The notes: generated from the letters alone by a model not told the origin. A DNA stretch of 64,000 nucleotides from Syntrophobacterales bacterium (GCA_020060385.1 JAGVAH010000151.1:17474-81473), one strand, 5' to 3'; shown: positions 6,241-48,571, numbered from the stretch's first letter. Numbers and translations are program-made.

Positions 6241-6555
6241 TGGCTCTCCTTTCTTGGTTTCTTTATAAAGATGAGTGAATATGGCCGCATAATATTACCA
6301 TCCCGGCATTGAAGGGGCAACAGGAAGGCCCCAGGCATCAGGGTTTTGCTGCAACTCAATTAGTGCATTTGCGAAATGTTGTTGATAAAATGATTGCTAA
6401 ACTAAAAGAAGTGTAAGCTTCAGCCTCTCCTCTTATTCCGGGGCTGGCGGTCTTTCCCGTTAAATGCCAGAGGCCGAACATCCCGGGGCTTGGGCTCCGG
6501 CTGCTATATCCGAATAAATTGTAAAAGATTCAGTTTAGTACAAAGGAAGCCAGGC

Positions 6556-28187: not shown

Positions 28188-28234
28188 TGGTCGGGACGAG
28201 AGGATTTGAACCTCCGACCCCCTGAACCCCATTC
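28188..28234. repeat. att direct repeat: 47-bp copy of the 3' part of tRNA-Pro(GGG)
   Basis: Exact identity with 48495-48541 (tggtcgggacgagaggatttgaacctccgaccccctgaaccccattc). Sequence diverges immediately outside both copies. Confidence 0.9.
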
Positions 28235-28402
28235 CGTTTCATTGCCTTTTTCTTATTTTTCCCGCCTTGAGAAAAATCTTGACATTTCCTGTAAAATAAG
28301 CAAATTAAAATCATAGATTTTGTGATGGTTTTACCCACTTAGAGATAGATTATCTTTTTATCACCCACACTACACCCACACCGAAAAAGAGGAGCTTTGA
28401 CA

Positions 28403-29587
28403 ATGGCTATTAATATCTTCTGTCCTGCCTGCAAGAGAAATTGCGGCTTGAAGGCTGAGGTTTGTAAGTGCGGGAACATATTTGGACGGAAAAAGCAGTA
28501 CCGGGTGCAGGTGTACCAGAATGGAAGGCCCGTTTATGATAAGGTGTTCCCTAACCTCGCACGGGCCGAAAAAGCTGAGACCATCAAGAAAGCAGAGCTT
28601 GAAACGAACGAGCTTGGCATTAAAGAGAAGCCGAAACCGGCCCCCACCTTGACAGAGGTTTGGCTCAAATACCAGGTTTGGGCCAAGGGGAATAAGAAAA
28701 CCTGGGATGATGACATGCTGAACTACGGGAAGCACCTGGCCCCCCGGTTTGGCAAGAAGCGCCTGGATGCCATCTCTGCCATGGAGGTGAACCGTTTAAA
28801 GCTGGAAATGGCCAAGGGGAAAACCAAAGACGGTGCCCCATACTTGAGCAAACGGGGGAAGCTCTTTTCCGCCAGTACTATCAAGCATCAACTGGTGCTG
28901 CTTCAAAGGCTCTATAAGTTTGCCCAAGGCCCCGACTTCAAGTACAAGGGGAGCACCCCATTCGACCATAAGCAGGTGGTAATGCCCCACCTGGATAACG
29001 AACTGCCAAGATTTCTAGCCGGTGACCAGTTGGCGGCCCTGTGGGGTGCCCTGGATGCTTGGCCGGAGAAGGTGACAGTGGGCTTTATCAAGTTCGCTTT
29101 GCTTACCGGGGTGCGCCGGGGCACATTATTTACTATCCGATGGGCGGACGTAGATTTTGAAAGAAGCATGGTGACCCTGACCATCTCTCACCGGCGGAAG
29201 GGGACCGAAACAGTTGCCAAGAAAGTTTGCCCGGAAGCGCTTGAAGCGCTTAGAGACCTGCCCCGGATTTCGGAGTATGTTTTCCCGGGCAAAGGTGGAG
29301 GGCAAAGGACAGATTTCAAAGGCCCCTGGCGGCGGATTAGGAAGGTGGCGGGGTTGCCAGACAGCATCCGCTTTCACGACCTAAGGCATACCTTTGGGAG
29401 CTATCACGCCATGAACGGGACTACCCCGCAAGTCCTGCAACAGTTGATGAACCATCGGGACTTCAGGACTACCCTGAAGTATGCCCACCTGTCCCCCGGC
29501 GTGGTTAACGAAAGGGCGGCCCGGACTGGCGAGATGTTGGCCCCAAAGAAGACAGAAGGCAAGGTTATCAATTTGACGGAAGATTGA
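28403..29587 (+). CDS. int: tyrosine recombinase / phage-type integrase
   Basis: SD agaggag. Arg-I GVRRGTLFTIRWADVD; HDLRHTFGS; NHRDFRTTLKYAHL (catalytic Tyr). N-terminal Cys-rich segment CPACKRNC..CKCG. Confidence 0.9.
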   Translation: MAINIFCPACKRNCGLKAEVCKCGNIFGRKKQYRVQVYQNGRPVYDKVFPNLARAEKAETIKKAELETNELGIKEKPKPAPTLTEVWLKYQVWAKGNKKTWDDDMLNYGKHLAPRFGKKRLDAISAMEVNRLKLEMAKGKTKDGAPYLSKRGKLFSASTIKHQLVLLQRLYKFAQGPDFKYKGSTPFDHKQVVMPHLDNELPRFLAGDQLAALWGALDAWPEKVTVGFIKFALLTGVRRGTLFTIRWADVDFERSMVTLTISHRRKGTETVAKKVCPEALEALRDLPRISEYVFPGKGGGQRTDFKGPWRRIRKVAGLPDSIRFHDLRHTFGSYHAMNGTTPQVLQQLMNHRDFRTTLKYAHLSPGVVNERAARTGEMLAPKKTEGKVINLTED

Positions 29588-35028: not shown

Positions 35029-38000
35029 ATGGATGAAGCCAAGCTGATCCAGGCCAGAGACGCCCTCACTCGCTACTGCCTAAGCATCCGGCAAATCCGC
35101 CAGGACCCCGGCCACCATCCCGAAACCTCCCTTTACACCCCTTTGGAAAACCTGTTGCGGGAACTGGCCGCCATCCTAGATACCAAAATTACCGTCATCC
35201 AGCAGTATTCCACTGGAGAGATCGGCGCTCCGGATTTCTGCATCAAGCCTGCCGGAAAGTCCTTGGCTTTCTCGGAAGCCAAGGAGCCCGATAAACACCT
35301 GGATAACTTGCGGGGCCGGGACCGGGAACAACTGGAGAAATACCGGGAGTTGCCCAACCTGCTATACACTAACTTCTGGGACTTGAAACTCTTTCAGGAA
35401 AAGAGCGAAGTGCAGCAGGCGGTCCTTCTGCCCCGGGAATGCCTGGACCCCGGGATTCCTTATACCGCCCGGCTTGCGTCCCATGATCCTGGCCCTGCTT
35501 TGGATCTGTTGGCCCGGTTCTTTACTTACTCCCTCCCCTACATCACTAAGCCGGCCCAACTCTGCCAGCACCTAGCCCGGGCCGCCCGCCTGGTCAGGGG
35601 CGCGGTGGAAGAGGCCATGGAGATCGCGCCCCCCGACTCTCCTCTGGGCCAGATTTACTCCGAGTTTCGGGATATCCTGTTCTTCGAGTTGGACCAAAAG
35701 GAATTTGCCGACGCCTACGCCCAGACCCTGGCCTATGGCTTATTGCTGGCTAGGCAGGCGGCCACCGGCCAGACCCTGGCCCTGGCCACGGCCCACACCT
35801 TCATCAGTCCGGAAAGACATCGCCTCCTCGCCGCCACCCTGAACCTCCTGGCCCAGCCGCCGGTCACCGCTATGGTGGGCTGGAGCTTGGCCTCCCTGGT
35901 GGAACTGGTGAACCAGGTGGACCCCGGAGTGCTGGCCTACGAGGACCCGGCCCATGACCCCTTGCTCTATTTCTATGAAGACTTCCTGGCCGAATATGAC
36001 CCGGAACTGCGGCGTAAGCGGGGCAGCTATTACACGCCCCCGCCGGTGGTGAACTTCCAGACCAGGGTGATCAACCGCCTGCTGGTGGATCGTTTTCAAC
36101 GGCGCTACGGCCTGGCCGATGCAGGTATTGAGATTCTTGATCCCGCAGTGGGTACCGGCACTTATCTGGTTTCCGCCCTGGGGGAAGGCTGCCAGCATAT
36201 GCGCCGGGCCATGGGCGAAGCCGCGGTGCCCCAGGCCGCCACCCACCTGGGCAACCACCTTCATGGCTTTGAAATCCAGGTGGGGCCGTATGCCGTGGCC
36301 CATTACCGTCTGGCCACCGCGGTGCAAGAATATGGCGGCCATATCTCCGGGCGCCTGCCCATATATTTAACCGATACCCTCTTGCCCTCTTATGGCCAGC
36401 CCCAGGTCACCCCCCACTTCGGTTTCATGTCTGCGCCCATCACCGAGGAGCGTCAGGGTGCGGACCGGGTCAAGGCGGAGATCCCCATCATGGTCATCAT
36501 TGGTAATCCCCCTTATGGCCGGGGCAAGGCCGAAACCGGCTGGGTCTGGGAAGTCCTGATGGAAGATTTTCGCAAGGAGGTGCCACCGGAATACCGCATC
36601 GATCTGAAGAACCTGGCAGAATGGTATGCTTATTTTTATCGCTGGGCCATGTGGAAGCTCTTTGAACAGGAGGCGGCCCCCAATCGGGGTATCTTGAGCT
36701 TCATCACCAATTCCCGCTGGCTCATTGGCGGGGCCTTCGGGGGCATGCGCCAGATGTTCCGGCGCTACTTCGACCGGATTTATATCCTGGACCTGCACGG
36801 TGACGGCCGGGCCCCTTTACCCGCGGGGGTGGAGGTAGACCAGAACGTCTTTGACATCCAGGTGGGGGTGGCCATCGCCGTGTGTGTCGCCGACGGCTCC
36901 CGAGGCGAGGCGGAGGCGGAAGTTTATTATACCGACGAGTGGGGCAGCAGGACCTCGAAGGAGGAATGGCTCAACCAGTTCCCCGAAAACCTGCCCCTGG
37001 ATTGGTTTGAGGTGGTTTCCGGAAGTGGCCTGGACCCTTTCTATCCGAGTATGGAAGTGAATTTTACCACTTGGCCCGATTTGCGTTCCATATTCATTAA
37101 AAAATTTAGTGGTGTCGAGACGAAGAGAGATAAGTTAGTAGTTGCTCCAACTAAAGATGAAATCCAAAGAAAAATTACTATTTTTCTTAATGCTCCTGAA
37201 AACCAAAAGGAAGAAATTTTCCATAATACGCGAGATAAAACTTACTACAGGGCAGCCGAAACAAGTTTTGACCCCACCTTGATTGCTCCGTATGCATATC
37301 GTCCTCTTGATAACCAATTTATATATTATCATCAATCATTTATAGACTATGATCGTAGAAATTCATTAAAACCTTGTTGGGGGTCTAATAACCTTTCTTT
37401 GGCTTCTCTTCAATATCGTCATGGGCGCGGCCCCGTAGCTTTTCTGCAATCGGTCCTTCCCAACCGTCATGTTTATGGAGGCCATGGCGGTCACATCTTT
37501 CCCCTTTGGGACAAATCCACCGGCGCTTGGAGCACCCACAACTTTCACCCCGCCTTGCTGGAAAAACTATCCACTTTTTGGGGTCAAGAGATAACCCCAG
37601 AGCAGCTTTTCGCTTACTGCTACGGGGTCCTGGCCTGGGAAGGTTATAGCCTGCGCTTTGCCCGGGAGCTGGCCCGGAGCTTTCCCCGTGTTCCCTTTCC
37701 CCGTGATCATAATCTTTTCCAGGAGGGCGCGGAGTTAGGGCAGCACCTCATCAACTGGCACAGCTTCCAGGAGCGTTACCCCGGCGACGGTTCCATCACC
37801 ATCCAGGGGCCAGCAACCACCATCGAGAAGAGCGAGTATGACCCCCCAAACCGCTGCCTCTATTTGGCAGAGGAAACCAACGCCGCTCCGGTCTCCCTGG
37901 AGGCTTGGGACTATGTGGTAAGTGGCTATGAGGTCCTGCGCCAGTGGGTGAAACGTCGCCTGGGGCTCCCCATGACCCTGGAAATCCAGAGACAGTTGCT

Positions 38001-38115
38001 CGATGTGATCTGGGCGGTGGAGCAGACGGTGAATCTGCGCCCGGCCTTAAATGACTTTGGTGAACGTCTTTTGGCCGCTACGCACTTTTCGATTCAGGAA
38101 CTGGGGATAGGGTAA
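35029..38115 (+). CDS. single-polypeptide type IIG/IIL restriction-modification enzyme (PD-ExK nuclease + N6-adenine methyltransferase + C-terminal specificity region)
   Basis: N-terminus GAPDFCIK-x14-SEAKE (PD..ExK). SAM motif I ILDPAVGTGTYL. Motif IV IIGNPPYGR. C-terminal WDYVVSGYEVLRQWVKRR, typical of the type ISP/IIG tail. Confidence 0.8.
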   Translation: MDEAKLIQARDALTRYCLSIRQIRQDPGHHPETSLYTPLENLLRELAAILDTKITVIQQYSTGEIGAPDFCIKPAGKSLAFSEAKEPDKHLDNLRGRDREQLEKYRELPNLLYTNFWDLKLFQEKSEVQQAVLLPRECLDPGIPYTARLASHDPGPALDLLARFFTYSLPYITKPAQLCQHLARAARLVRGAVEEAMEIAPPDSPLGQIYSEFRDILFFELDQKEFADAYAQTLAYGLLLARQAATGQTLALATAHTFISPERHRLLAATLNLLAQPPVTAMVGWSLASLVELVNQVDPGVLAYEDPAHDPLLYFYEDFLAEYDPELRRKRGSYYTPPPVVNFQTRVINRLLVDRFQRRYGLADAGIEILDPAVGTGTYLVSALGEGCQHMRRAMGEAAVPQAATHLGNHLHGFEIQVGPYAVAHYRLATAVQEYGGHISGRLPIYLTDTLLPSYGQPQVTPHFGFMSAPITEERQGADRVKAEIPIMVIIGNPPYGRGKAETGWVWEVLMEDFRKEVPPEYRIDLKNLAEWYAYFYRWAMWKLFEQEAAPNRGILSFITNSRWLIGGAFGGMRQMFRRYFDRIYILDLHGDGRAPLPAGVEVDQNVFDIQVGVAIAVCVADGSRGEAEAEVYYTDEWGSRTSKEEWLNQFPENLPLDWFEVVSGSGLDPFYPSMEVNFTTWPDLRSIFIKKFSGVETKRDKLVVAPTKDEIQRKITIFLNAPENQKEEIFHNTRDKTYYRAAETSFDPTLIAPYAYRPLDNQFIYYHQSFIDYDRRNSLKPCWGSNNLSLASLQYRHGRGPVAFLQSVLPNRHVYGGHGGHIFPLWDKSTGAWSTHNFHPALLEKLSTFWGQEITPEQLFAYCYGVLAWEGYSLRFARELARSFPRVPFPRDHNLFQEGAELGQHLINWHSFQERYPGDGSITIQGPATTIEKSEYDPPNRCLYLAEETNAAPVSLEAWDYVVSGYEVLRQWVKRRLGLPMTLEIQRQLLDVIWAVEQTVNLRPALNDFGERLLAATHFSIQELGIG

Positions 38116-38409: not shown

Positions 38410-38900
38410 TACCGTCCGGACCTTTTAGGGGGCCAGGATTACCCTGCCTAATTTCAAGAAAAATCTGCCCTCTTAAAAGCCCCAAGAGGAAATCCTAAAA
38501 ACTTTCCAACATAGTTTCATATCTGGAATCGTGGTTCTCGGCCTACCAGAGCAGATAATGGCAAGCTATCTATCATAGTTGGCAAAATACCCATGTAGAT
38601 AAAGGTTTGGGAGCAGATTCGATGCTTCCAGAGAATTTAAAAGTTATTTTTCCTCGTCTTACGTCTTATCATTATCTGTTGGTGTTACTCTGGGTTATTT
38701 AGCCTGAAAATCAGATCTGGGCTGACCTTCTCTGGCGTCTAATAACCGCAGAGGGGGGTTTTAGAAAGGTTTTATGTTATCATCCTTCTGAGAGTGGAAA
38801 TCCATCCCCTGGCGAAGTTCGAAAAATATTTCCATACACCTACTTGAGCAGCCATCGTCTGATTCCCGCGGAAAGTGGGCGATTGAGGAGTTTTACAGCT

Positions 38901-40478
38901 ATGCGGGCTTTATTGGTATGTCCCGAATTTCCCCTTTCCTTTTGGAGTTTCCAGAAATCTTGCCGGCTCCGGGGTAACAAAACTGTTAATCCACCGTTGG
39001 GCTTGATTACGGTGGCAGCATTGCTGCCGGCCGAATGGGAACTGCGTTTGGTCGATCTCAACACTGGCAGCTTGACGGAGGAAGATTGGCAGTGGGCCGA
39101 TCTGGTCTTGATCTCGGCCATGTACATTCAAAGAGCGGGTTTGGTGGCCCTGGTAAAAGAAGCCAAGCGCCGGGGGAAAACCGTCGTCGCCGGGGGACCC
39201 CACCCCACTTCGCTCCCTGAGGCTGTCCTGGAGGCCGGTTGTGATTTTGTGGTGCGGGGCGAAGGCGAAAATACGATTCCCTTATTGCTGGAAGCGATGA
39301 GAGTTGGCAAGAACGGGATCATCGAAAACGACGCCAAGCCGGATCTGACTACCTCACCGGTCCCGCGCTTCGACCTGTTGCGGCTGCAAGATTACGCCAC
39401 CGTGACCATTCAGACTTCCCGGGGCTGCCCCTTTGACTGCGAATTTTGCGATGTGGTGAACCTTTTCGGCCGCATTCCCCGGTACAAGACCCCCCAGCAG
39501 GTCCTGGCCGAACTGGAGACCCTCCATCGGCTCGGGGCCAGGGGGTCGGTGTTCATCTGCGATGACAACTTCATCGGCAGTAAGAAGCACGCCCGGGCCC
39601 TTCTGCAAGAGCTTACCCCTTGGCTGCGGAGCCGGGGGGAACCTTTCCATTTCATGACCCAGGCCTCGGTGAATCTGGGGCAGGATCTGGAGATGATCGA
39701 CCTCATGACTGCAGCCAACCTGGATAAAGTTTTTATCGGCATCGAGTCTCCGGATGAGAAGGTGCTACAAGCTAGCCACAAATATCACAACATCAGGAAT
39801 CCTCTCGTTGAATCGCTCCGCAACATCAAAGAGAATGGCATAGGAGTCATAGGCAGTTTCATCATCGGTCTGGATGGGGAAACGAAAGGGGCTGGCGAGC
39901 GCATCTGCGCCTTCCTGGAAGAGACCGCCATACCGGTGGCCATGCTTGGGGTCCTGCAGGCCGCGCCGCACACTAAACTGTGGCATCGACTGGAGAAAGA
40001 AGGGCGGCTGCGCCCGGACGTGGGAGATGACGCGGGGACTTTCTCAGCCATGAACCTCGAGCCGGATCGGCCGGAAGCCGAGATCATGCAGGAGTACGCC
40101 GAGGCCTGGGACTATCTTTACGAACCTTCCCGCTATCTGGCGCGGGCTTACCGCTATCATCTGGCCATGCGTGCGGCTCACCGGGCCCAGGGAATGACGT
40201 TGCGCCAGATATTAATTGAAGCCAAGGCTTTTTTCCAAATCCTCTGGTGGCAAGGGGTGCGCACGCCATACCGGCGCCAGTTCTGGACCCAGATGCTCGG
40301 GCTGTTGCGGCGCAACCCCACTAGATTTGTGGAGTACATCGTCACCTGCGCCATGGGCGAGGATCTCTTCAATATGAGAAAGGTGGTGCGGGAAAAGGCC
40401 ACGGCCATCATGAAGGAGCTGCAGATAGAGGTACCCGCCACGCCACCCCGGCGTGACGTGGGCTCCAGGGCAGGTTAG
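38901..40478 (+). CDS. B12-binding (class B) radical SAM enzyme, DUF4070-type C-terminus
   Basis: SD gaggag before the ATG at 38901. N-terminal B12-binding Rossmann region (ADLVLISAMY..VVAGGPHPT). Cluster motif SRGCPFDCEFCD. Confidence 0.8.
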   Translation: MRALLVCPEFPLSFWSFQKSCRLRGNKTVNPPLGLITVAALLPAEWELRLVDLNTGSLTEEDWQWADLVLISAMYIQRAGLVALVKEAKRRGKTVVAGGPHPTSLPEAVLEAGCDFVVRGEGENTIPLLLEAMRVGKNGIIENDAKPDLTTSPVPRFDLLRLQDYATVTIQTSRGCPFDCEFCDVVNLFGRIPRYKTPQQVLAELETLHRLGARGSVFICDDNFIGSKKHARALLQELTPWLRSRGEPFHFMTQASVNLGQDLEMIDLMTAANLDKVFIGIESPDEKVLQASHKYHNIRNPLVESLRNIKENGIGVIGSFIIGLDGETKGAGERICAFLEETAIPVAMLGVLQAAPHTKLWHRLEKEGRLRPDVGDDAGTFSAMNLEPDRPEAEIMQEYAEAWDYLYEPSRYLARAYRYHLAMRAAHRAQGMTLRQILIEAKAFFQILWWQGVRTPYRRQFWTQMLGLLRRNPTRFVEYIVTCAMGEDLFNMRKVVREKATAIMKELQIEVPATPPRRDVGSRAG

Positions 40479-40840
40479 CGGCAGCCTCGTAGAAGCCCGG
40501 GTGCTTGCCCCTTGACATTAGGCCCACCTTTTTATACCATTATTTTAATTAAACAGAGTGGGATTCAAAGCTAATCCAAACTTTCCTCCAGAAAAGCTAA
40601 CCAAGACCTTGTCGCTGGCAATCCAAAGTCTGATGTAAGGCACAATAATGGAGTAACGCCGCATATTACTTATGGCGTTAAGAGTTTGTCTGTCTGCATT
40701 CCCCTCTAAATGGCCATTTTTAGTGGAAGCGTGGGGAAAAGGGCGACAAATTCGCAAAGTAAAGTGCGCCGCGACCAATCTGTTAATGGAAGCATTTTAA
40801 TATACGGGGCTTTTCCCTGAACTTAGAAGAAAAGGAACCT

Positions 40841-42088
40841 ATGGAATTTAACACCTTTGATTTTCATCACCAGGTTATGGCGGGCGTTAGCGCGGCGCGC
40901 TATCTAACGCCAACGCCGATACAGGCACAGGCAATCCCGCTGGTCATGCAAGGGCACGATATCGTGGGCCTGGCCCAGACCGGCACCGGCAAGACCGCGG
41001 CCTTTGTGCTGCCAATTCTCCATCGCCTGATGCAAGGCAGGCGCAGGCACGTCAGGGCCCTGATTATTGCCCCCACGCGCGAACTGGCCGAGCAAATCCA
41101 TCAGGCCATTGGCACCCTGGGAAGCCGGACCGGACTCAAGAGCGTTACTATTTATGGAGGAGTTGGCTTCAACCCGCAGGCGGATAAGCTGAAACGCGCC
41201 GCCGCGATTGTCGTTGCCTGTCCCGGCCGCCTGCTTGACCATATCAGTCGTGGCACCATCGACCTCTCACATCTGGAAGTGCTCGTACTGGACGAGTCAG
41301 ACCGGATGTTAGACATGGGATTTCTGCCCGATATCAGAAAGATCATCGAGCACTTGCCGGCAAAACGCCAGACGCTTTTGTTCTCAGCAACCATGCCGGA
41401 TGATATTCTGCATCTATCCCGGGCAGTCCTGAAAGCACCGGTGACGGTGCAGGTTAATGCTACTGGACCGGCAAGCACTGTCTCTCATAAACTTTATCCG
41501 GTCGCGCAGCACCGTAAGACCCCGCTGCTCCTCGAACTGTTGCGCCATACCGCTACTGAGTCGGTTCTGATCTTTACGCGCACCAAACATCGGGCCAAGC
41601 GTCTGGGGGAACAGTTGGGGAAGGCCGGCTATCGAGCAGCATCACTGCAGGGAAATCTCTCCCAGGCGCAGCGTCAGGCGGTGATGAACGGGTTCCGCAA
41701 CGGCAACTTCCAGATACTTGTGGCCACTGACGTGGCCTCCCGGGGGATCGACGTGACCCAGATTTCCCACGTAATCAATTACGATATGCCGGATACTACT
41801 GATGCCTATACCCACCGAATCGGACGTACCGGCCGCAATGCCAAGAGCGGTGATGCCTTCACCTTTATTACTTCTGAAGATGAGGATATGGTGCGCAGCA
41901 TCGAGCGGGTCCTCCGCACCAAGGTAAAGCGTTGTATACTGAATGGTTTTGATTATAAAATGGCGGCACCGCCAGGCGATGCCGAGTTCGCACGGCCGCG
42001 ACGTAAGCCGCAGCGGCGCTTGGAACAGAAAAACCCCAAATCATTCAAAGCTTATGGTGAAGGCGCGCATTCTTTTGGACACAGATAG
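40841..42088 (+). CDS. DEAD-box ATP-dependent RNA helicase (RhlE-like), with DESD in place of DEAD
   Basis: Q-motif; AQTGTGKT; PTRELA; LDESDRMLDMGF; SAT; HRIGRTGR; basic C-terminal tail. Confidence 0.9.
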   Translation: MEFNTFDFHHQVMAGVSAARYLTPTPIQAQAIPLVMQGHDIVGLAQTGTGKTAAFVLPILHRLMQGRRRHVRALIIAPTRELAEQIHQAIGTLGSRTGLKSVTIYGGVGFNPQADKLKRAAAIVVACPGRLLDHISRGTIDLSHLEVLVLDESDRMLDMGFLPDIRKIIEHLPAKRQTLLFSATMPDDILHLSRAVLKAPVTVQVNATGPASTVSHKLYPVAQHRKTPLLLELLRHTATESVLIFTRTKHRAKRLGEQLGKAGYRAASLQGNLSQAQRQAVMNGFRNGNFQILVATDVASRGIDVTQISHVINYDMPDTTDAYTHRIGRTGRNAKSGDAFTFITSEDEDMVRSIERVLRTKVKRCILNGFDYKMAAPPGDAEFARPRRKPQRRLEQKNPKSFKAYGEGAHSFGHR

Positions 42089-42467
42089 AGGTTAAATCAA
42101 GCAGCCGGGAGCAACCCTGATATTGCTTCCGGCGGGCTGGGGCCGGGGTTTTGTGATCCTGATGTTAGGATAATCCCAGTTTCCGTGCAAAAATGCGCTA
42201 AAATCCAGGAGGGGTGCGTCAGAGAAAAGGGTGAGGCTCTCTAGCACGCCAGTCATGACGCAGGATCGAGCCCCAATTTGACTAAGCGACTGGTTAGCCA
42301 GGTTGGATCAGAGATGGCGATAGCTCCTATGACCTGCCCCGTTTCCAACAAAAAAATGGTTATTTGCTATGGTTAGCATAACTACATTTCAGGTCATTGC
42401 CCTTTTCAAATCTTACCTCAATTTATAATATCCCTCTTTACGCTACTATCCTCAGCCTGTCAGGTGA

Positions 42468-42941
42468 CTAGGCAAGACGCAATTGCGCCAGCGAGGCCCT
42501 GGCGCTGCCACCGCTGATATCCGGCACAATCTTTAATTCGAGCACGGTTACCCTGTCGAGATCGACCTCGTAGTTTTCGACCTCCCGGGTTTCCCCAGGC
42601 GGACTGAAGTTATATTGTTGGCGCAGAATCTCCCGGTAGGTCTGACCGCCGTCTGGTGACCATCGCAAAACGAACTCTTGGGTGCGCTCCTGCTCGCCTT
42701 CATGGAACATCAGGTGGACCCGCCTAAGGCTCAGCGGCTCATCAAACAGGAGGCGAATGGTCTGCTCCCCTGGCTCCGCCGCCCGCCAACCCTGGCCCGT
42801 ACCCTGAATCAGCGCCGATTCAATCGGATAGTCGGCATCTTCGGACGTGATTTCGGCTTGGGCCAAGAGGTCAAGGTCCAGCCAACCGGGCTCGGGGGCT
42901 TCGACCTCACGAGGCCCATGACCGATAATGCGCTTACGCAT
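42468..42941 (-). CDS. hypothetical protein, possibly a discoidin/F5-8 type C-like beta-sandwich
   Basis: 157-aa ORF and the only minus-strand gene in the island. The fold call is weak pattern recognition only. Confidence 0.4.
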   Translation of the reverse strand: MRKRIIGHGPREVEAPEPGWLDLDLLAQAEITSEDADYPIESALIQGTGQGWRAAEPGEQTIRLLFDEPLSLRRVHLMFHEGEQERTQEFVLRWSPDGGQTYREILRQQYNFSPPGETREVENYEVDLDRVTVLELKIVPDISGGSARASLAQLRLA

Positions 42942-43114
42942 AGAGTCTTCCTCCTTTTCCCCATTCTAGTTTAACTTATATATTAAGTGGATTCTATTTT
43001 TTTCCCCTAAGTCACTTTGACGGATGCCTTAAAAAATAACCTCTATTATTTATAGTATTATTTATAGGGGTTAATTGGAGTCCCGGGATTTTGCTGCCAA
43101 TTATTTTAATTGGC

Positions 43115-43142
43115 TTGACATCAAATAATTTTTTTGTAAAAT
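43115..43142 (+). promoter_or_regulatory. sigma70-like promoter candidate for csp
   Basis: TTGACA-N16-TAAAAT, about 160 nt upstream of the csp ATG. Confidence 0.5.
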
Positions 43143-43196
43143 ACATCCAAGTTTAGCATGTCAGAATGAAATCAGGGCCACAAGTCCTGGACAAAA

Positions 43197-43234
43197 ATCG
43201 GACGGGGGTGCTAATTCCCGGCCGATTTTTTTTT
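43197..43234 (+). promoter_or_regulatory. terminator-like hairpin + T9 inside the csp 5' leader (possible attenuator/thermosensor)
   Basis: atcggacggg / cccggccgat (9 of 10 bp paired) followed by nine T residues, between the promoter candidate and the csp start. Confidence 0.4.
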
Positions 43235-43301
43235 GCCTGACTGCTGTGCGCCCTGCTTTTTGGGCAGGAATATCTTTGCAGTATTTGTTGGAGGTTTCAC
43301 C

Positions 43302-43505
43302 ATGAAGGAAACTGGTACGGTTAAATGGTTTAATGACTCGAAAGGCTTTGGTTTCATTACCCGGGAAAACGGTCCGGATGTGTTTGTACATCACAGCGCC
43401 ATTCTGGGCGAAGGCTTCCACACCCTGTCAGAAGAACAGGCAGTAGAGTTCGATGTAACCCAGGGTCCCAAGGGTCCCCAGGCCCAAAACGTCGTAAAAC
43501 TTTAG
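43302..43505 (+). CDS. cold-shock protein, CspA family
   Basis: [15 protein letters not shown] (RNP1) and DVFVHHSAI (RNP2); 67 aa. Confidence 0.9.
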
Positions 43506-43586
43506 GCCAAACAGCCTAAAGAGCGGACCTCCGTCGGTCTCTGGACCCTCGGAGTTCCGCCACCTTGATTATTAAAGAGGTAGAAC

Positions 43587-43733
43587 TTGGCACGTAACCG
43601 TTATAGCTGGCAAAAGCGGGTAAAAGAGTTGGCCCGAAAAGAAAAAAATGACGAAAAAATGAAACGTCGCCAGGGAAAAACCACGCCACCGCCGACGGAG
43701 GAAATGCCGAGGGAGGTTGAAGAAGGAACTTAA
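43587..43733 (+). CDS. possible 48-aa Lys/Arg-rich small protein (TTG start)
   Basis: SD aagagg lies 8 nt before the TTG. Translation LARNRYSWQKRVKELARKEKNDEKMKRRQGKTTPPPTEEMPREVEEGT. Absent from the supplied ORF track, presumably below its size cut-off. Confidence 0.3.
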   Translation: MARNRYSWQKRVKELARKEKNDEKMKRRQGKTTPPPTEEMPREVEEGT

Positions 43734-43776
43734 AGGTACTGACGGGCAGGTCCGGCAAGACCAACAGGGAGAAGAT

Positions 43777-44082
43777 ATGAGTATCAAATTGTACGTGGGC
43801 AATCTATCCTACGAGACTACCGAAGAACAGCTGAACTCTTTGTTCTCCGAGGCCGGCGCCGTGGCCTCGGCCAAGATCATCACCGACCGGCAGACGGGTC
43901 AACCCCGGGGTTTCGGTTTTGTGGAAATGGAGAGCAAAATGGACGGCCAAAAGGCCATTTCCATGCTCAACGGCCGTAATATAGATGGCCGCGCCCTGGC
44001 AGTCAATGAAGCCAAACCGCAGCAAAAAGGCGGATTTGGGGGCGGCCGTGGCGGCCGCGGCGGCCGCGGCGGTTACCGCTAG
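43777..44082 (+). CDS. RRM-type RNA-binding protein with C-terminal RGG tail
   Basis: RNP2 KLYVGNL, RNP1 RGFGFVEM, tail GGGRGGRGGRGGYR. Confidence 0.9.
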   Translation: MSIKLYVGNLSYETTEEQLNSLFSEAGAVASAKIITDRQTGQPRGFGFVEMESKMDGQKAISMLNGRNIDGRALAVNEAKPQQKGGFGGGRGGRGGRGGYR

Positions 44083-44146
44083 AGCCGGGGGTCAGGTGCT
44101 AGGAAGTAGACACTTTACTATCAGTCCTGGGATTTTCGGGTAATCG

Positions 44147-44175
44147 AAAGGCGGCCTTTGGGCCGCCTTTTTGTT
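44147..44175 (+). terminator. intrinsic terminator
   Basis: aaaggcggcc-tttg-ggccgccttt followed by ttgtt. Confidence 0.7.
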
Positions 44176-44243
44176 CAGAAACTGAATCAGCGGTGTTATT
44201 TCCGCGATTCCTTAAGCGTCAGCAGATGCGAAGGATTTTCTTA

Positions 44244-45782
44244 ATGAAGATCTTTTTGGTTTATGTGCGAGATGAAAACTTTTGCCGCTTACTGCCCAAA
44301 GAACTGGATAGATCCCCCTCTGACAATAGCCGCATCAAAGTAATGGGCCTTCCGCCCCTGGGAATCCAGACCCTGGCGCCGGTCCTGCGCCGGCATGGAC
44401 ACCGGGTGCGGCTGTTTGATACCTGTCACCCACTGATGCAGGCGGAACATATCGCTCAGGCAGTGGAAGAAGAATGGCCCGACGTCATTGCCCTCTCCTG
44501 TCTCTCCACGACCACCTACCCGGCGGTCAAAGACCTGGCCCGGCGATTAAAGTTGGGACCGCGGCAAATCCCCATCATCTTAGGCGGGCCATTTGCCACC
44601 ATGAATGCAGACCGCATCCTGGCAGACTGCCCTGACATCGACTGCGTGGGGGTGGGGGAGGGCGAAGAGCTGTTGCCGGACTATTTGAGCAACCTCGCCG
44701 ATCCCAGCTCCGTAGCCGGTCTGGTCTGGCGCCACGCAGGGAAGATTGTGGAGAACGTCTTACGACCGCTTATTCAGGATCTGGATCAGTTTCCCTACCC
44801 CGACCGCACCAGCCTGCCCATCGACTACATCGAGTCCTTGCCCCTGGACGTCCCTGCGGTCCTCTCCCTAGATAAATTTTGCACCATGCAGACTTCCCGA
44901 GGCTGCCCTTATTCCTGCATATATTGCGATATTCCCTCCCTGGCCCGGGGCAAATGGCGCTACCGCTCCGCGGAGCATGTCTTGGGGGAAATGCAGCAAT
45001 TGAATGATCTGGGCTATCGCTCCATTTACCTGACCGATGATCATTTCCTCCTTAACCGCAAGCGCATCAGCGAAGTTTGCCGCGGGATTATTGACCGCGG
45101 GCTGCAGTTCCATTGGGGTTGCGAAGGCAGGGTGGATGCAGTCGCGGTGGATCAGTTGCCTATCATGAGTAAAGCCAACTGTAATTTCCTGGCTTTTGGC
45201 GTGGAGGCGGGGACGCAAAAGGTGCTTGACCGGCTTAACAAGAAACAGACTCTGAAGCAGGTGGAACACGCGGTCAGTGAAGCGAAGCGGCATGGCATCG
45301 CCAGGGTGCACGGATTTTTTGTGATTAGCTCTCCCGACGAAACCGAAGAGGATATCCTGGCCAGCTTCCGTTTTGCCGCGCGGCTGAAGCTGGACACCTT
45401 CGGTTTCGGACGCTTATGCGTTTACCGGGGCACCCCTTTATGGCAGGAGTATATCGATCGGGGGATCATTGACGACACACTGGATTGGCACAAATGGTTC
45501 AAGTGCTCGGACGTTGACCCCACCGTATTACCGAGCGCCAGGGTGAACCGTCTGCGCATGAAAGGCTACGCCTTGTTGTTTGCCCGCCGGATTTTCAGGC
45601 GCCCCTTCCGCACCTACAAGCTCCTGCGCATGTTCGGCCGTCATATGAAGAAATCAGATCTCCTAAAATTGCTCTGGAGCCCTTTCCAACGGCGGACTCT
45701 GAGCCGGAAGCCCGATCTCCCGGCCAGGATGATGGATCTGGGACTCACAGAGCCCGAGAGGGGCACAGTCTCCATCACCTAA
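44244..45782 (+). CDS. B12-binding (class B) radical SAM enzyme, second copy
   Basis: N-terminal B12-binding-like region (PDVIALSCLSTT..IILGGPFAT). Cluster motif SRGCPYSCIYCD. The ORF is open from 44193. Confidence 0.8.
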   Translation: MKIFLVYVRDENFCRLLPKELDRSPSDNSRIKVMGLPPLGIQTLAPVLRRHGHRVRLFDTCHPLMQAEHIAQAVEEEWPDVIALSCLSTTTYPAVKDLARRLKLGPRQIPIILGGPFATMNADRILADCPDIDCVGVGEGEELLPDYLSNLADPSSVAGLVWRHAGKIVENVLRPLIQDLDQFPYPDRTSLPIDYIESLPLDVPAVLSLDKFCTMQTSRGCPYSCIYCDIPSLARGKWRYRSAEHVLGEMQQLNDLGYRSIYLTDDHFLLNRKRISEVCRGIIDRGLQFHWGCEGRVDAVAVDQLPIMSKANCNFLAFGVEAGTQKVLDRLNKKQTLKQVEHAVSEAKRHGIARVHGFFVISSPDETEEDILASFRFAARLKLDTFGFGRLCVYRGTPLWQEYIDRGIIDDTLDWHKWFKCSDVDPTVLPSARVNRLRMKGYALLFARRIFRRPFRTYKLLRMFGRHMKKSDLLKLLWSPFQRRTLSRKPDLPARMMDLGLTEPERGTVSIT

Positions 45783-45861
45783 ACTGAACTGCTCTGTGTC
45801 GAGGTGGCTCAGGAGAAGACGCAGACCAATGCCTCTAGATAAGACCGACAAGGAGAAGGCG

Positions 45862-46140
45862 ATGAGTAAAAGATTAGCCGTGGGCAACCTGCCCCACCAA
45901 ATGACCGGAGAAGAGTTGCAGACCCTTTTTTCTGAAGCCGGCTTGGTGGCCTCCTCCAAGATCATCACTTATCTGCACAACGGGCAGACCCGCGGTTTCG
46001 GCTTTGTGGAGATGCATACCCCAAAGGAAAGCCAGAGAGCCATTGCCCTGCTCAATGGCCGGCAGGTTGAGGGGCGCCCCCTGGTAGTCAAAGCGGATAG
46101 AGTGGGGTCAAAAAACCCTTTTAGCCGCCGCCGCAAATGA
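45862..46140 (+). CDS. RRM-type RNA-binding protein, second copy
   Basis: RNP2 RLAVGNL, RNP1 RGFGFVEM; short basic tail. Confidence 0.85.
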   Translation: MSKRLAVGNLPHQMTGEELQTLFSEAGLVASSKIITYLHNGQTRGFGFVEMHTPKESQRAIALLNGRQVEGRPLVVKADRVGSKNPFSRRRK

Positions 46141-46290: not shown

Positions 46291-46479
46291 ATGCTTAGCG
46301 TGAAAGGAAATAATATTATGGTAAGATTTATTCCGCAGTTTGAACTAATGAAATATTTTTATTACCGGTTGGCTATCATTCAGGTGAGAGCTGGCGAGAC
46401 CAATGATGAAGCCTGGCATCGCCACCTCATGGAGACCCCTGATGATATTCATGCGACCATCAGGGTTTTTAACTCTTAA
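46291..46479 (+). CDS. hypothetical small protein
   Basis: ORF only; the start is uncertain (alternative ATG at 46318). Confidence 0.3.
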   Translation: MLSVKGNNIMVRFIPQFELMKYFYYRLAIIQVRAGETNDEAWHRHLMETPDDIHATIRVFNS

Positions 46480-46516: not shown

Positions 46517-46858
46517 ATGAAACAAAAAAACGTTAAGGCGATCTTTTCGGAATTTGACGCTTATTGCGAGGCACTGGATAGAAACGGCTGTATCAGCTAT
46601 CCCGTCACCATCACCTGGACCATGACCGGGCAACATTACGGCCGGCCCGTGGTGGTGATTCTGGGTGAGGCCCGGGAGACCAGTGACCTGCCTCCCGGTG
46701 AATTGCAGGTGCCAGCGGAGATTTTGGAAGAAGTGAGGCAGGTTGGATATGGCGCCCAACCTCTCAGCCTGGAGGAAATCAAGGAGTATTGGAGAGAGGC
46801 TAGCCGGTTGATTGTCAAAAACCATTGGCACCCAGAGGCCCGGCTGGTGCAATATTAG
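46517..46858 (+). CDS. hypothetical protein
   Basis: 113-aa ORF from an internal ATG preceded by ggagac; no motif recognised. Confidence 0.4.
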   Translation: MKQKNVKAIFSEFDAYCEALDRNGCISYPVTITWTMTGQHYGRPVVVILGEARETSDLPPGELQVPAEILEEVRQVGYGAQPLSLEEIKEYWREASRLIVKNHWHPEARLVQY

Positions 46859-47138
46859 ATAAAATCGACCTCTTTTCCCCGAATAGCGTATACCTAATTA
46901 GGTGAGAGGCAGGAAAATAAGATAAAAGTGGCAAACAATATTATTTATCCGAAGTTTTTCCCAAAGCATCCCAGAGAAATAGCTCATCTTTTCTGTCGAT
47001 AACTGCTATATCTCAGCTACTTAAATAATCAATAAGATATTTGGATATGATCATTGTATTGACCACTGACCCTACCTCCCTTCTTCTCCTCCCATCCCCA
47101 TAGATTCATCGCCAGGTCGAAGGAGAGTACCCGCCCTA

Positions 47139-47159
47139 GAAAAGCGCTAGCGCTTTTTT
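47139..47159. terminator. palindromic terminator-like element
   Basis: gaaaagcgct|agcgctttttt, a perfect palindrome with A/T runs on both sides. Confidence 0.35.
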
Positions 47160-48494
47160 AGAGGGTGTCTGAAGAGGGACCATCGTCTGTAAGGGAAAGC
47201 ATGGGGAAGCATGTTTTCTATTTTTTCCCCGGCAAATGTCAGGAGTTACTGTGTATCGGGGGCAGGCCCTACCCCCTTTAGGGAAGAGGGATCGGAACCT
47301 TTGCCCAAAGGCAAGCTTCCCCCCGGCTCCCGGCGCCCCTGCCCGGTGCCGAAGCTCCCACCCTTGCCAGCGCATGAATCTCACTCTCTCTGAAATTTTT
47401 CCCTGTCTTAGAGCGGGAGTTTTTTCGAAATCCGCCCATTCCCGCCTCCACCGCAAACAGAGGGTCAGCCGGGGGCGGAAAACTGCAAAAAACTTCCCAG
47501 CCGCGTGGGAGAAAAACTTAGAAAAGATGCCAACCTATGCTTACCTATGGGCTCCTCGATTGCGAGGGCAAATAGACCCATAACTCCTAACTCAAGTTGA
47601 GAGTTTTCAGAAAAAAAAGCAGGGGACATCCACCCCCATGCCAGGGAAGATTTTGCCTCGCAAATTTTGAGGTCCAGGTCCCGTTGACGGGGGGGGGGAG
47701 CTGGTCACCGGCACTGCTCACCCAGAAAAGATTTTTGAGAATCTGGTCCGCCAGCATCGTACTGACAGGGGGGGATAGGAGTCCCGTCCCGGGGTTTAGG
47801 TTCCCGGGCCAGAAAGTTCTCAGAGCGCGGCGGCCGGGGGCCGGTGGACATCCGCCACCAGTCCCGGGCCAGCTGTCCGGGACCCACGAACTGCTGGTAG
47901 CCTACCGGTAGGCGGGGAGAGACCACCGGCCAGATCACGGCCACACCACTCCCGGGCCGGATAACCAGTGTCAGAAATCCTGGATAGGCGGGTTATCTGT
48001 TGCAGAAATTCATCTTGTAGTGACGTGGGCGGCAACCTCATTCCAGGCGATTGGAAGGGCGGCAGGAATGCGTCTTGAAGGCTGTTGTAGAGGAAGGTGT
48101 CACCTTACCCCTACCTTGCTGCGACAAGGGGCCTGGGAGCCGTTTCTACCAAGGATTCTGACGCCTGGCGCTGGGCTGGCGATGGAGTACAGGGCCGGTC
48201 TGGGGAAAGGCCCCCTTTGGCTGCGCGTGTTACTCGCTGCCCTCCACCCCGAGATGGTTTTCTCTCCCATTGCTACGCCCGGCTCTTGGCGATAGACCGG
48301 TTCTGGATTGCCAGAGCCCCGTTTCTCTGCCCCGCCAGAGTGGGGTACAAGGTGGGCAGGAATCAAAAAATTAAAATGCCTGATGGGGTACTCCTGAAAA
48401 TCATACCCACACTACACCCACACCGGCCAAAAAAATTAAAAAAGGCAAGTTCAGCAAAAATGCCGTAAATTGCCTTATTTTTTAGTTTATTTAA

Positions 48495-48571
48495 TGGTCG
48501 GGACGAGAGGATTTGAACCTCCGACCCCCTGAACCCCATTCAGGTGCGCTCCCAGTCTGCGCCACGTCCCG
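48495..48571 (-). tRNA. tRNA-Pro(GGG), CCA encoded; integration target of the island
   Basis: Minus strand reads cgggacg-tg-gcgc-agactggga-gcgc-a-cctga-atGGGgt-tcagg-gggtc-ggagg-ttcaaat-cctct-cgtcccg-a-cca. Confidence 0.9.

Follow-up and report, generated by a model that had tools for sequence, protein, structure and literature searches.

A conserved, island-borne cluster of two orphan B12-binding radical SAM enzymes and RNA-chaperone proteins as a candidate low-temperature acclimation module

In a 64,000-nucleotide stretch of DNA from a Syntrophobacterales bacterium (GCA_020060385.1 JAGVAH010000151.1:17474-81473; hereafter the window), two genes for cobalamin (B12)-binding radical SAM enzymes, rSAM1 and rSAM2, are interleaved with genes for an RNA helicase, a CspA-family protein and two RRM proteins, and this association is conserved in related genomes and recurs in a second phylum. 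The explanation we prefer, to which we give a probability of roughly 45%, is that the cluster is a low-temperature acclimation module of Desulfobaccales-like anaerobes in which RNA chaperones act as the gate for two radical SAM enzymes that are co-regulated, work without O2 and probably modify lipids. A literature search found no paper describing such a module, in agreement with the sequence-only reading, which could not assign the arrangement to a described system.

The cluster sits in a 20.3-kb island bordered by a 47-nt direct repeat of a tRNA-Pro 3' end. The tRNA-Pro(GGG) gene lies on the minus strand at 48495..48571, its 3' 47 nt (48495-48541) being attR, while an exact copy on the plus strand at 28188..28234 marks the left boundary (attL); the chance expectation for this exact repeat is 0. 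An integrase gene (PF00589, 28397-29587) is the next after attL, and the repeat also encloses a Prim-Pol protein, a Type ISP restriction-modification enzyme and the RNA/rSAM cluster. The G+C content is 0.48-0.56 within the island compared with about 0.60 outside. The tyrosine integrase, the tRNA 3'-end repeat at both borders and the deviant composition bear out the earlier claim of a mobile island, of which the module would be a cargo in this genome. The island backbone was found to accompany the module in no other locus examined. With PADLOC, the module proteins gave only generic superfamily matches (helicase, CSD and a weak rSAM model) and no specific defence-system match.

Every gene of the earlier list was recovered at its place with Pfam scores above the gathering cut-offs, and the start codons were refined. 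With a conserved promoter and leader belonging to rSAM1 itself and a conserved terminator between RRM1 and rSAM2, the cluster is not one operon but probably comprises about five transcription units. These would be rSAM1 with its promoter and leader; the helicase gene with a long leader; a divergent gene for a 157-aa beta protein; cspA, a 48-aa basic peptide (s48) and RRM1, ending in a terminator; and rSAM2, RRM2, a 62-aa ORF (u62) and the gene for a 113-aa orphan protein (u113). The description of the cluster as an RNA-centred module holds for the conserved adjacency of rSAM and RNA-protein genes, but neither for its RNA-centred nature nor for a single operon.

Both enzymes carry the domains of class B radical SAM proteins in Pfam. 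rSAM1 (38901-40478, plus strand) consists of B12-binding (PF02310, 60 bits), Radical_SAM (PF04055, 72 bits) and C-terminal DUF4070 domains and contains the CxxxCxxC motif CPFDCEFC; its ATG at 38901 is kept in the alignment of orthologues, of which there are more than 100 at 78-89% identity, including one at 81% in a UniRef entry labelled Desulfobacca acetoxidans. rSAM2 (44244-45782, plus strand) consists of B12-binding (PF02310, 86 bits) and Radical_SAM (PF04055, 82 bits) domains with the motif CPYSCIYC. An enzyme counted as a member of a characterised class B family if its score reached the curated equivalog cut-off of NCBIfam, and the equivalogs compared were HpnR, HpnJ, BchE, QCMT/TIGR04014, PhpK, ApyD, ladderane TIGR04072, AprD4, BzaD and slr0320. 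All NCBIfam scores of rSAM1 were below cut-off, the best matches including TIGR04013 (108.6 bits, cut-off 251) and TIGR04014, and those of rSAM2 reached no cut-off either, with ApyD (173.6 bits, cut-off 750) and BchE (169.6 bits, cut-off 481) as the best. The solved structure closest to rSAM1 is QCMT (9ccb, E 6e-16), and the PDB relatives of both enzymes are only remote. Judged by these scores, rSAM1 and rSAM2 are both orphan families, and the prospect that they might fall within characterised families did not materialise. Across Desulfobaccales and Verrucomicrobiota, the identity of rSAM2 orthologues does not fall below 74%, while the next full-length relatives share 46, 43 and 40%; this cross-phylum identity is unusually high for a lipid-tailoring enzyme and counts against a lipid substrate. 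The C-terminal 80 residues of rSAM2 are very basic. A tail of this kind could bind RNA as well as membranes, which likewise counts against lipids.

Orthologue alignments revealed a promoter and leader cassette 5' of rSAM1 (38690..38900, plus strand), which is conserved whatever the neighbours of rSAM1. Its core, GGTTTTAGAAAGGTTTTATGTTATCAT at 38757-38783, contains an extended -10 element (TGnTATCAT) and is followed by a leader of ~120 nt with the Shine-Dalgarno (SD) sequence GAGGAG. Among 170 loci, the core motif was found nowhere but 5' of the two rSAM genes or their orthologues: in 7 distinct loci and the window it precedes rSAM1, in 5 loci rSAM2. The presence of one cassette in front of both genes points to a common regulon, of which the two enzymes would be the enzymatic output. 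Counting against a module, Csp and RRM neighbours are missing from the rSAM1 orthologues of about half the species sampled.

The Csp, RRM and helicase proteins would act as RNA chaperones. The RhlE/CshA-like helicase (40841-42088, plus strand; PF00270, 175.8 bits; PF00271, 114.5 bits) has motifs I (AQTGTGKT), III (SAT) and VI (HRIGRTGR) and scores below every named NCBIfam equivalog. It had been called a DEAD-box helicase; the helicase is there, but motif II reads DESD, here and in all module orthologues. The gene is preceded by a promoter-like site, TTGACA-17-TACCAT (40512-40540), with a leader of ~300 nt (40512..40840, plus strand), and is followed by a terminator-like hairpin (42127-42148). 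The promoter of cspA, TTGACA-16-TAAAAT (43115-43142), is preceded by the palindrome GCCAATTATTTTAATTGGC and followed by a leader of ~160 nt (region 43096..43301, plus strand), so that the long leaders proposed for both genes are plausible with these sigma-70-like promoters. The 67-aa CspA-family cold-shock-domain protein (43302-43505, plus strand) is a clear family member (PF00313, 98.9 bits, cut-off 27; RNP1 KGFGFI and RNP2 VFVHH readable) and falls just under the NCBIfam CspE cut-off (107 bits, cut-off 120), while the cspA region scores 30.8 bits with the Rfam cspA thermoregulator, under the gathering score of 78. Some CspA-family proteins are not cold-induced, which counts against a role in the cold. 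RRM1 (43777-44082, plus strand; RRM_1, 84.8 bits) has an RGG tail and exceeds the NF058537 cut-off of 100 (107.2 bits), while RRM2 (45862-46140, plus strand; RRM_1, 62.9 bits) remains under it (70.5 bits). RRM2 starts 79 nt after rSAM2 with no terminator in the gap. In Bacteroides, RRM-1 proteins are cold-shock proteins redundant with Csp (PMC13370968).

Upstream of rSAM2, a leader of three hairpins (44083..44243, plus strand) shows conserved pairing in 19 loci. P1 is a long hairpin; P2 is an intrinsic terminator (GGCGGCC...GGCCGCC followed by a T-run, 44146-44172), the one already suspected between RRM1 and rSAM2; and P3 pairs UCCUU with AAGGA, sequestering the SD of rSAM2. Across these loci 83% of cells are paired (P2, 93%), compared with at most 56% when the partners are slid.

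The remaining genes encode small proteins, three of which lack family matches. The minus-strand beta-type ORF described earlier is present at 42468-42941, divergent from cspA, and its 157-aa all-beta product is 70-85% identical among module loci; it gave weak matches only, to F5_F8_type_C_2 (E 0.005) and XRCC1_N, and an AF2 model of low confidence. The Lys/Arg-rich microprotein s48 (43587-43733, plus strand, TTG start), previously a mere possibility, is supported as a conserved frame: of 19 distinct sequences listed, 17 retain the frame and the N-terminal 30 residues with the core ARNRYGWQKRAKELARKEKNDEKMKRRQGK (a stop occurs in L171 and L008 is short), while the C-terminus is variable. Profile searches found no family match for s48, and none was found in Pfam for u62 (46291-46479, plus strand), which is conserved in some module loci (72-82% identical in L097, L100 and L101). 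The last gene of the rSAM2 unit encodes u113 (46517-46858, plus strand), with Cys17, Cys25, His103 and His105 (HWHP) invariant; its 202 homologues are all 'hypothetical' and without Pfam domains, and the AF2 model is of low confidence. A 151-aa version of this ORF was rejected, as its start is too early.

The adjacency of rSAM genes to RRM, Csp and helicase genes is not unique to this genome. The order rSAM1, 157-aa gene (minus strand), CSD, (s48), RRM occurs in L001, L002, L008 and L012, and the full arrangement from rSAM1 to rSAM2-(CSD)-RRM-u113 in L084 and L171, while the helicase gene varies in position, lying 5' of rSAM1 (L010), 3' of u113 (L012) or as here (L098/L099). In close loci, defined by an rSAM2 orthologue at least 86% identical, the 5' side of rSAM2 carries RRM (12/12) and CSD (12/12) genes and the 3' side RRM (13/13) and u113 (11/12) genes. 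At least five genomes retain the inner gene order between differing outer flanks. Most rSAM2 orthologues below 79% identity sit among unrelated genes, which counts against a module. A JGI metagenome scan supplied the contigs that carry the orthologues. Metagenome runs with words in common with the window bear the labels lake water, freshwater sediment and marsh, some MAG titles point to lakes and peat, and no RNA run was found to contain the sequence.

In Verrucomicrobiota the order is RRM, rSAM2, Des, DUF4070 rSAM and DEAD (minus strand), with 41-44% identity of the RRM protein to RRM1, 77-78% of rSAM2 and 38% of the DUF4070 enzyme to rSAM1; in L048 a DUF4070 rSAM gene is followed by an RRM gene. 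Judging from the other RRM lineage and gene order, the association was assembled independently in these cases. With 460 bits in the NCBIfam Delta(5) desaturase DesA model (cut-off 500), the Verrucomicrobial desaturase comes close to being an equivalog of the cold-shock Δ5 acyl-lipid desaturase of Bacillus. That the link to Des comprises four distinct loci of one lineage counts against the lipid reading. In L086 and L129, the Des gene adjoins a HisKA_3 kinase and a GerE-type regulator, the kinases not being DesK equivalogs.

Two hypotheses had been put forward for the cluster, modification of RNA handled by the chaperones and lipid remodelling within a low-temperature package. The latter is favoured, because the only informative enzyme partner found is this Des-like desaturase, operonic with rSAM2 and the DUF4070 rSAM. 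B12-dependent radical SAM enzymes methylate lipid tails, and Ted desaturates them without O2 (bioRxiv 10.1101/2025.10.20.683597; PMC13459092). We therefore consider membrane-lipid acyl chains the most likely substrate of rSAM1 and rSAM2, which would be methylated or desaturated independently of O2 at unactivated carbons, as a strict anaerobe's equivalent of the O2-dependent Des desaturase of aerobes. Against this, no lipid-biosynthesis gene lies inside the Desulfobaccales module itself. From the position of rSAM2 behind cspA-RRM1, a conserved terminator and an SD hairpin, we infer a gate at the RNA level: in the cold, accumulating Csp and RRM chaperones, or the helicase, would permit read-through and rSAM2 translation. 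CspA-family proteins act at terminators (Bae et al., 2000, as cited in PMC8307031), but B. subtilis Csps favour termination, not read-through, at some sites (PMC8307031), which counts against such gating. A more specific version of the proposal would place rSAM1 and rSAM2 in two new families of temperature-gated, O2-independent acyl-lipid enzymes (a mid-chain C-methylase and/or an anaerobic desaturase), counterparts of Des that are mobile on islands and controlled by a Csp/RRM-dependent riboregulatory leader; this version is doubtful.

That rSAM1 and/or rSAM2 instead modify rRNA, tRNA or mRNA at unactivated carbons, with the Csp, RRM and helicase proteins unfolding or presenting the RNA, seems unlikely. 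All close loci do have an RRM gene on either side of rSAM2, the set of RRM, DEAD, rSAM2 and DUF4070-rSAM genes is met again in a second phylum, and rSAM2 has a basic microprotein and a Cys/His protein for company; the enzyme, with its strongly basic C-terminal tail, is also as tightly conserved as translation-apparatus enzymes often are. However, we know of no enzyme acting on RNA among the cobalamin-dependent (class B) radical SAM proteins, and the sole enzyme partner found is the Des-like lipid desaturase; moreover, a terminator lies between RRM1 and rSAM2, rSAM1 forms a transcription unit by itself and many orthologues have no RNA-binding neighbour. The words 'RNA' and 'tRNA' are absent from the searched text of a review of B12-dependent radical SAM enzymes (PMC12931638).

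C-methylation of protein residues, for example in the RGG tail of RRM1, Csp, a ribosomal protein or u113, is very improbable. Its models would be Mmp10 and QCMT, which act on methyl-coenzyme M reductase. The structural proximity of rSAM1 to QCMT, its TIGR04013/TIGR04014 matches, the RiPP enzyme ApyD as best match of rSAM2, and the small conserved proteins s48, u62 and u113 next to the enzymes all fit this idea, but the QCMT-type and ApyD-type scores are far under the family cut-offs, the module contains no leader/core precursor-peptide-like gene, RiPP recognition element, protease or exporter, and there are rSAM2 orthologues that have none of the small proteins beside them. It is also unlikely that the genes share no function, their company being synteny inherited in one Desulfobaccales clade or hitch-hiking in tRNA-linked hot spots, with an rSAM pathway unrelated to chaperones or temperature. 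The association falls with divergence (12/12, 8/13, 3/14 and 3/32), rSAM1 orthologues are often elsewhere (L003, L007, L009, L011, L013, L016), the units have separate promoters and terminators, and the module lies near various tRNA genes. Set against this are the inner order kept between changing outer flanks, the separate origins in Verrucomicrobiota and L048, the single promoter cassette serving both rSAM genes, and the conserved structured leader coupling rSAM2 to the cspA-RRM1 unit.

O2-dependent desaturases, which serve membrane fluidity in the cold, are not available to strict anaerobes. The company of two tightly conserved orphan B12 rSAM families (Csp, RRM, helicase and, elsewhere, a Des-like partner) points to anaerobic membrane adjustment in the cold. 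If the enzymes methylate, they would be candidates for the enzymes that methylate branched membrane lipids of bacteria in a temperature-dependent way, a signal read as a palaeothermometer in peat and lake sediments; should RNA be their substrate instead, we know of no earlier RNA modifier among the class B radical SAM enzymes. The csp-rbp operon 5' of a terminator and SD-hairpin leader offers a natural, conserved case for studying Csp- or RRM-dependent read-through in bacteria other than E. coli. Three small orphan proteins are tied to bacterial RRM biology, and the module exemplifies a stress-acclimation package on an integrative island.

The bacterial cold-shock stimulon (CspA; CsdA/CshA/CrhC; cyanobacterial and Bacteroides Rbp) comprises the same three protein classes and long 5' leaders; here, in contrast, the classes are physically clustered on an integrative island and interleaved with two cobalamin rSAMs, a 48-aa basic peptide and two orphan proteins. 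In the Des pathway of B. subtilis, a DesK/DesR-controlled Delta5 acyl-lipid desaturase modifies acyl chains after synthesis upon a cold trigger and needs O2. The Verrucomicrobial operon of a Des near-equivalog with rSAM2 and a DUF4070 rSAM resembles it, whereas no membrane FA_desaturase gene, found only in that counterpart, and no two-component system occur in the window, and radical SAM chemistry does not need O2. DUF4070 is also present in HpnP, and a literature text search found the term in two hopanoid papers. HpnP/HpnR, GrsA/B, Gmm and the GDGT methylases, the Ted desaturase and the ladderane rSAM share the B12-binding and radical SAM architecture and act on unactivated lipid-tail carbons (bioRxiv 10.1101/2025.10.20.683597; PMC13459092), but the scores with the HpnR, HpnJ and ladderane models are 5- to 9-fold under the cut-offs, and the neighbourhood of the rSAM genes contains no hopanoid, ether-lipid or ladderane genes. 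As in antitermination by E. coli CspA/CspC/CspE, a csp gene lies directly 5' of a conserved intrinsic terminator preceding further genes; here, however, the target would belong to the csp gene's own cluster, in cis, and be accompanied by a hairpin that sequesters the SD.

Genes were called as six-frame open reading frames (ORFs), followed by Pfam and NCBIfam scans of the window, and every element of the gene list given by the sequence-only reading was recovered. The first B12-binding radical SAM enzyme (rSAM1; 38901-40478; B12-binding, Radical_SAM and DUF4070 domains) is followed by a DEAD-box-type helicase (40841-42088), a minus-strand ORF of 157 aa (42468-42941) with a weak galactose-binding-like match and nothing else, CspA (43302-43505), a 48-aa Lys/Arg-rich ORF (s48; 43587-43733), an RGG-tailed RRM protein (RRM1; 43777-44082), an intrinsic terminator of textbook form (44146-44172), the second B12-binding radical SAM enzyme (rSAM2; 44244-45782; B12-binding and Radical_SAM domains), a second RRM protein (RRM2; 45862-46140) and two unknown ORFs of 62 and 113 aa, the latter (u113) at 46517-46858. 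Between u113 and a tRNA-Pro gene lies an interval of ~1.6 kb (46859-48494) that contains no convincing gene and shows no similarity to comparison loci L001-L168, a set to which the near-identical contig L169 does not belong; a 40-nt palindrome is located within it at 47129-47168. A 1980-aa ORF (6490-12432) was observed well away from the cluster.

The 3'-terminal 47 nt of tRNA-Pro(GGG) (48495-48541) are exactly repeated at 28188-28234, where no such repeat is expected by chance. This repeat, a tyrosine integrase (28397-29587) at the end distant from the intact tRNA, and a G+C content between the repeats lower than that outside bear out the earlier description of the region as an island. The integrative element spans 20.3 kb (28188-48541), also encodes a Prim-Pol protein (31026-33707) and a Type ISP restriction-modification enzyme (35029-38115), and carries the whole cluster as cargo. 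Homologues of the integrase, the Prim-Pol protein and the restriction-modification enzyme are missing from all other loci with the module, and co-travelling of the island backbone with the module was therefore rejected. An anti-phage defence reading, prompted by the restriction-modification enzyme, was also discarded, since PADLOC returned generic matches only. In three other loci a tRNA-Val, tRNA-His or tRNA-Asp gene adjoins the module (L084 4449-4523, L008 2166-2242, L089 12102-12178), which hints at a frequent location in tRNA-linked variable regions.

Orthologues of rSAM1 number more than 100 at 78-89% identity in Desulfobaccales and Thermodesulfobacteriota MAGs, and for rSAM2, too, more than 100 were found, at 75-90% identity. 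One rSAM1 orthologue, of 81% identity, is in a UniRef entry labelled Desulfobacca acetoxidans. Their neighbourhoods were sampled by look-ups of the contigs encoding orthologues, by a scan for rSAM1 over one genome per species followed by tblastn with all module proteins, and by a metagenome scan for rSAM2 followed by tblastn. The core order rSAM1, 157-aa ORF (minus strand), CspA, s48, RRM1, rSAM2, RRM2, u113 was found whole or in part in many loci. Adjacency of radical SAM genes to RRM or helicase genes, for which a check across genomes had been suggested, recurs in differing outer flanks: gas-vesicle genes and L25 in L001, ABC transporters in L002, a toxin-antitoxin pair and an MFS transporter in L084, topoisomerase I and a CHASE2 cyclase in L171, and the island in the window and L169. 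The helicase gene shifts its position: L098/L099 have it at the place seen in the window, L012 has it downstream of u113, and L010 has it upstream of rSAM1. Further B12-binding radical SAM paralogues were seen near the module in L098 (11774-12922), L100 (6688-7764) and L010 (1534-2634), and L017 (6706-11599) contains such paralogues in tandem, three in a row.

Both radical SAM enzymes have a class B architecture with an intact CxxxCxxC motif and are 25% identical to each other. When compared with characterised class B families, as the sequence-only reading had proposed, both scored far under all curated NCBIfam equivalogs (HpnR, HpnJ, BchE, QCMT, PhpK, ApyD, ladderane and others), and their solved relatives are remote only (QCMT 9ccb, AprD4 6fd2). 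An exhaustive search of 1.84 billion cluster representatives showed that rSAM2 forms a tight clade; once fragments of rSAM2 itself are set aside, identity drops to 46, 43 and 40% in the nearest full-length relatives and then to ~30-35% in the general superfamily.

The rSAM1 gene has its own conserved cassette, consisting of an extended -10 (TGnTATCAT) with an inverted repeat upstream and a ~120-nt leader, which is kept in orthologues with or without Csp/RRM genes after them. The core, GGTTTYGGGRAAGYTTTRTGWTATCAT with the inverted repeat ATCAG...CTGAT upstream (window 38757-38783; L114 7908-7934; L118 7701-7727; L124 1637-1663), occurs 13 times in 170 loci and the window, solely upstream of rSAM1 orthologues (8; seven distinct loci and the window) or rSAM2 orthologues (5; L114, L118, L120, L121 and L124), where it takes the place of the cspA-RRM1 unit. 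One cassette serving two non-orthologous enzymes is good evidence of a common regulon, and GGTTTYGGGRAAGYTTTRTGWTATCAT with its inverted repeat probably serves some regulator as operator and promoter.

Sigma-70-like promoters precede the helicase gene and cspA in the window and, as predicted from sequence, would give long leaders. Immediately next to the -35 of the cspA promoter lies a perfect palindrome, GCCAATTATTTTAATTGGC (43096-43114), whose 12-nt core ATTATTTTAATT is present again at 40539-40550, where it directly follows the helicase promoter's -10. A search for a 'cold-box' motif common to the window leaders gave no convincing candidate; the sole overlap was this 12-nt stretch, which the csp and helicase promoter regions have in common at unlike relative positions. 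No riboswitch or known leader was detected in the window with Rfam at gathering and E-value thresholds, the sole match being a sub-threshold one to the cspA thermoregulator, mostly over coding sequence. A search of sequencing runs with words of the window returned no RNA runs, and no DNA run contained more than 7% of these words.

Across 19 distinct loci, the 161 nt that separate RRM1 from rSAM2 keep three hairpins, namely the long hairpin P1, the terminator P2 (93% paired cells and a core, GGCGGC/GCCGCC, that hardly varies) and P3, in which UCCUU is paired with the Shine-Dalgarno sequence AAGGA. In total, 83% of cells are paired; with the partners slid, this share reaches 56% at most. The closeness of the sequences keeps the covariation modest. 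The P1 structure used in this test was mapped from two members, and the RNAalifold consensus for P1 disagreed with the single-sequence folds.

Motif II of the helicase is D-E-S-D, not D-E-A-D (window 41280-41300, residues ~150-156), and D-E-S-D is also found in all five listed orthologues from module-type loci (81-100% identical). Of the 19 distinct s48 sequences listed, 17 retain the reading frame together with a basic N-terminus that hardly varies. In the u113 family (202 members, no Pfam match), Cys17, Cys25, His103 and His105 (HWHP) are invariant and suggest a metal site; the few members with a named source come from Deltaproteobacteria, Desulfobaccales, Syntrophobacterales and Thermodesulfobacteriota MAGs. 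Between loci, the 157-aa protein shows 70-85% identity, and its family profile gave a single match against the PDB, XRCC1_N (E~0.07). Structure predictions for u113 (25-sequence alignment, pLDDT 46.7) and the 157-aa protein (single sequence, pLDDT 40.1) were of low confidence and hence too poor for a fold search.

In Verrucomicrobiota (L086/L087, L129, L138, L141), rSAM2 orthologues of 77-78% identity occur in an arrangement unlike that of Desulfobaccales, with an RRM gene (41-44% to RRM1), rSAM2, a fatty-acid desaturase gene and a DUF4070 radical SAM gene (38% to rSAM1). In L129 the desaturase gene is a short remnant, and a DEAD-box helicase gene follows the DUF4070 gene on the opposite strand; motif II of the verrucomicrobial helicase is DEAD. 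Since the RRM genes are of another lineage and the genes stand in another order, we regard this as a second assembly of these protein classes and not as inherited synteny. A third case is L048, where a DUF4070 radical SAM gene is followed by an RRM gene. The verrucomicrobial desaturase reaches 460 bits with the NCBIfam Delta(5) desaturase DesA model, just below the cut-off of 500, indicating a close relative of the Bacillus desaturase, which is a cold-shock-induced acyl-lipid desaturase. A HisKA_3 kinase and a GerE-type regulator are encoded close by in L086 and L129. Their identification as DesK/DesR was rejected, as the families match with no equivalog-level match, and the two-component system is accordingly taken as no more than a hint.

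The RNA chaperone set of Csp, RRM-1 proteins and helicase is established cold-shock machinery. We propose, with a probability of roughly 0.45, that the cluster is a low-temperature acclimation module with lipid-modifying radical SAM enzymes and a chaperone-gated rSAM2 unit, within which we infer cold induction, substrate, chemistry and read-through mechanism alike. Csp, the RRM-1 proteins and the helicase would act as its cold-shock RNA chaperones, with both radical SAM enzymes co-localised and co-regulated with them; rSAM1 and rSAM2 would modify membrane acyl chains independently of O2; and the rSAM2 unit would be opened by chaperone-dependent read-through and unmasking of the Shine-Dalgarno sequence. 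Bacteroides RRM-1 proteins are cold-shock proteins of a non-canonical kind that work with the sole Csp (PMC13370968), and proteins of the CspA family act at terminators (Bae et al., 2000, as cited in PMC8307031). Lipid tails are methylated by B12-dependent radical SAM enzymes, and one such enzyme, Ted, desaturates them without O2 (bioRxiv 10.1101/2025.10.20.683597; PMC13459092). Such lipid-active enzymes, the link to the chaperones and the verrucomicrobial Des-type operon are the grounds on which acyl-chain modification is proposed.

The C-terminal 80 residues of rSAM2 contain 21 Lys/Arg versus 5 Asp/Glu, and this basic C-terminus would suit an anionic membrane surface or RNA alike. RNA or RNP substrates would agree with it too, and we consider them unlikely, the Des-type operon pointing to acyl chains. 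Proteins, e.g., the RGG tail or small proteins such as the conserved s48, are highly improbable substrates. A functional separation of the radical SAM enzymes from the chaperones would be consistent with the rSAM1 orthologues that have no Csp/RRM neighbours in about half of the sampled species and with stand-alone rSAM2 orthologues, whose neighbour census gave mixed genes with no pathway enriched. The association also weakens with rSAM2 identity (8/13 at 82-86%, 3/14 at 79-82%, 3/32 below 79%). Among rSAM2 orthologues of at least 86% identity, RRM and CspA genes lie upstream in 12/12 each, and RRM and u113 genes lie downstream in 13/13 and 11/12, respectively; we judge such a separation rather improbable. 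The interpretation offered by the sequence-only reading is borne out in part: the association that it noticed is real and had not been described, with the evidence leaning towards its lipid hypothesis more than towards an 'RNA-centred' module.

We found no paper on a Csp/RRM/helicase cluster with B12-dependent radical SAM enzymes, in agreement with the earlier statement that the arrangement could not be assigned to a described system, and a 2026 review of lipid-modifying radical SAM enzymes has no entry acting on ordinary bacterial fatty-acyl chains upon cold (PMC13459092). Taken together, each protein class is known already, as is the cold-shock logic; what is new is their conserved coupling with two orphan B12 enzymes, together with the leader and the promoter cassette.
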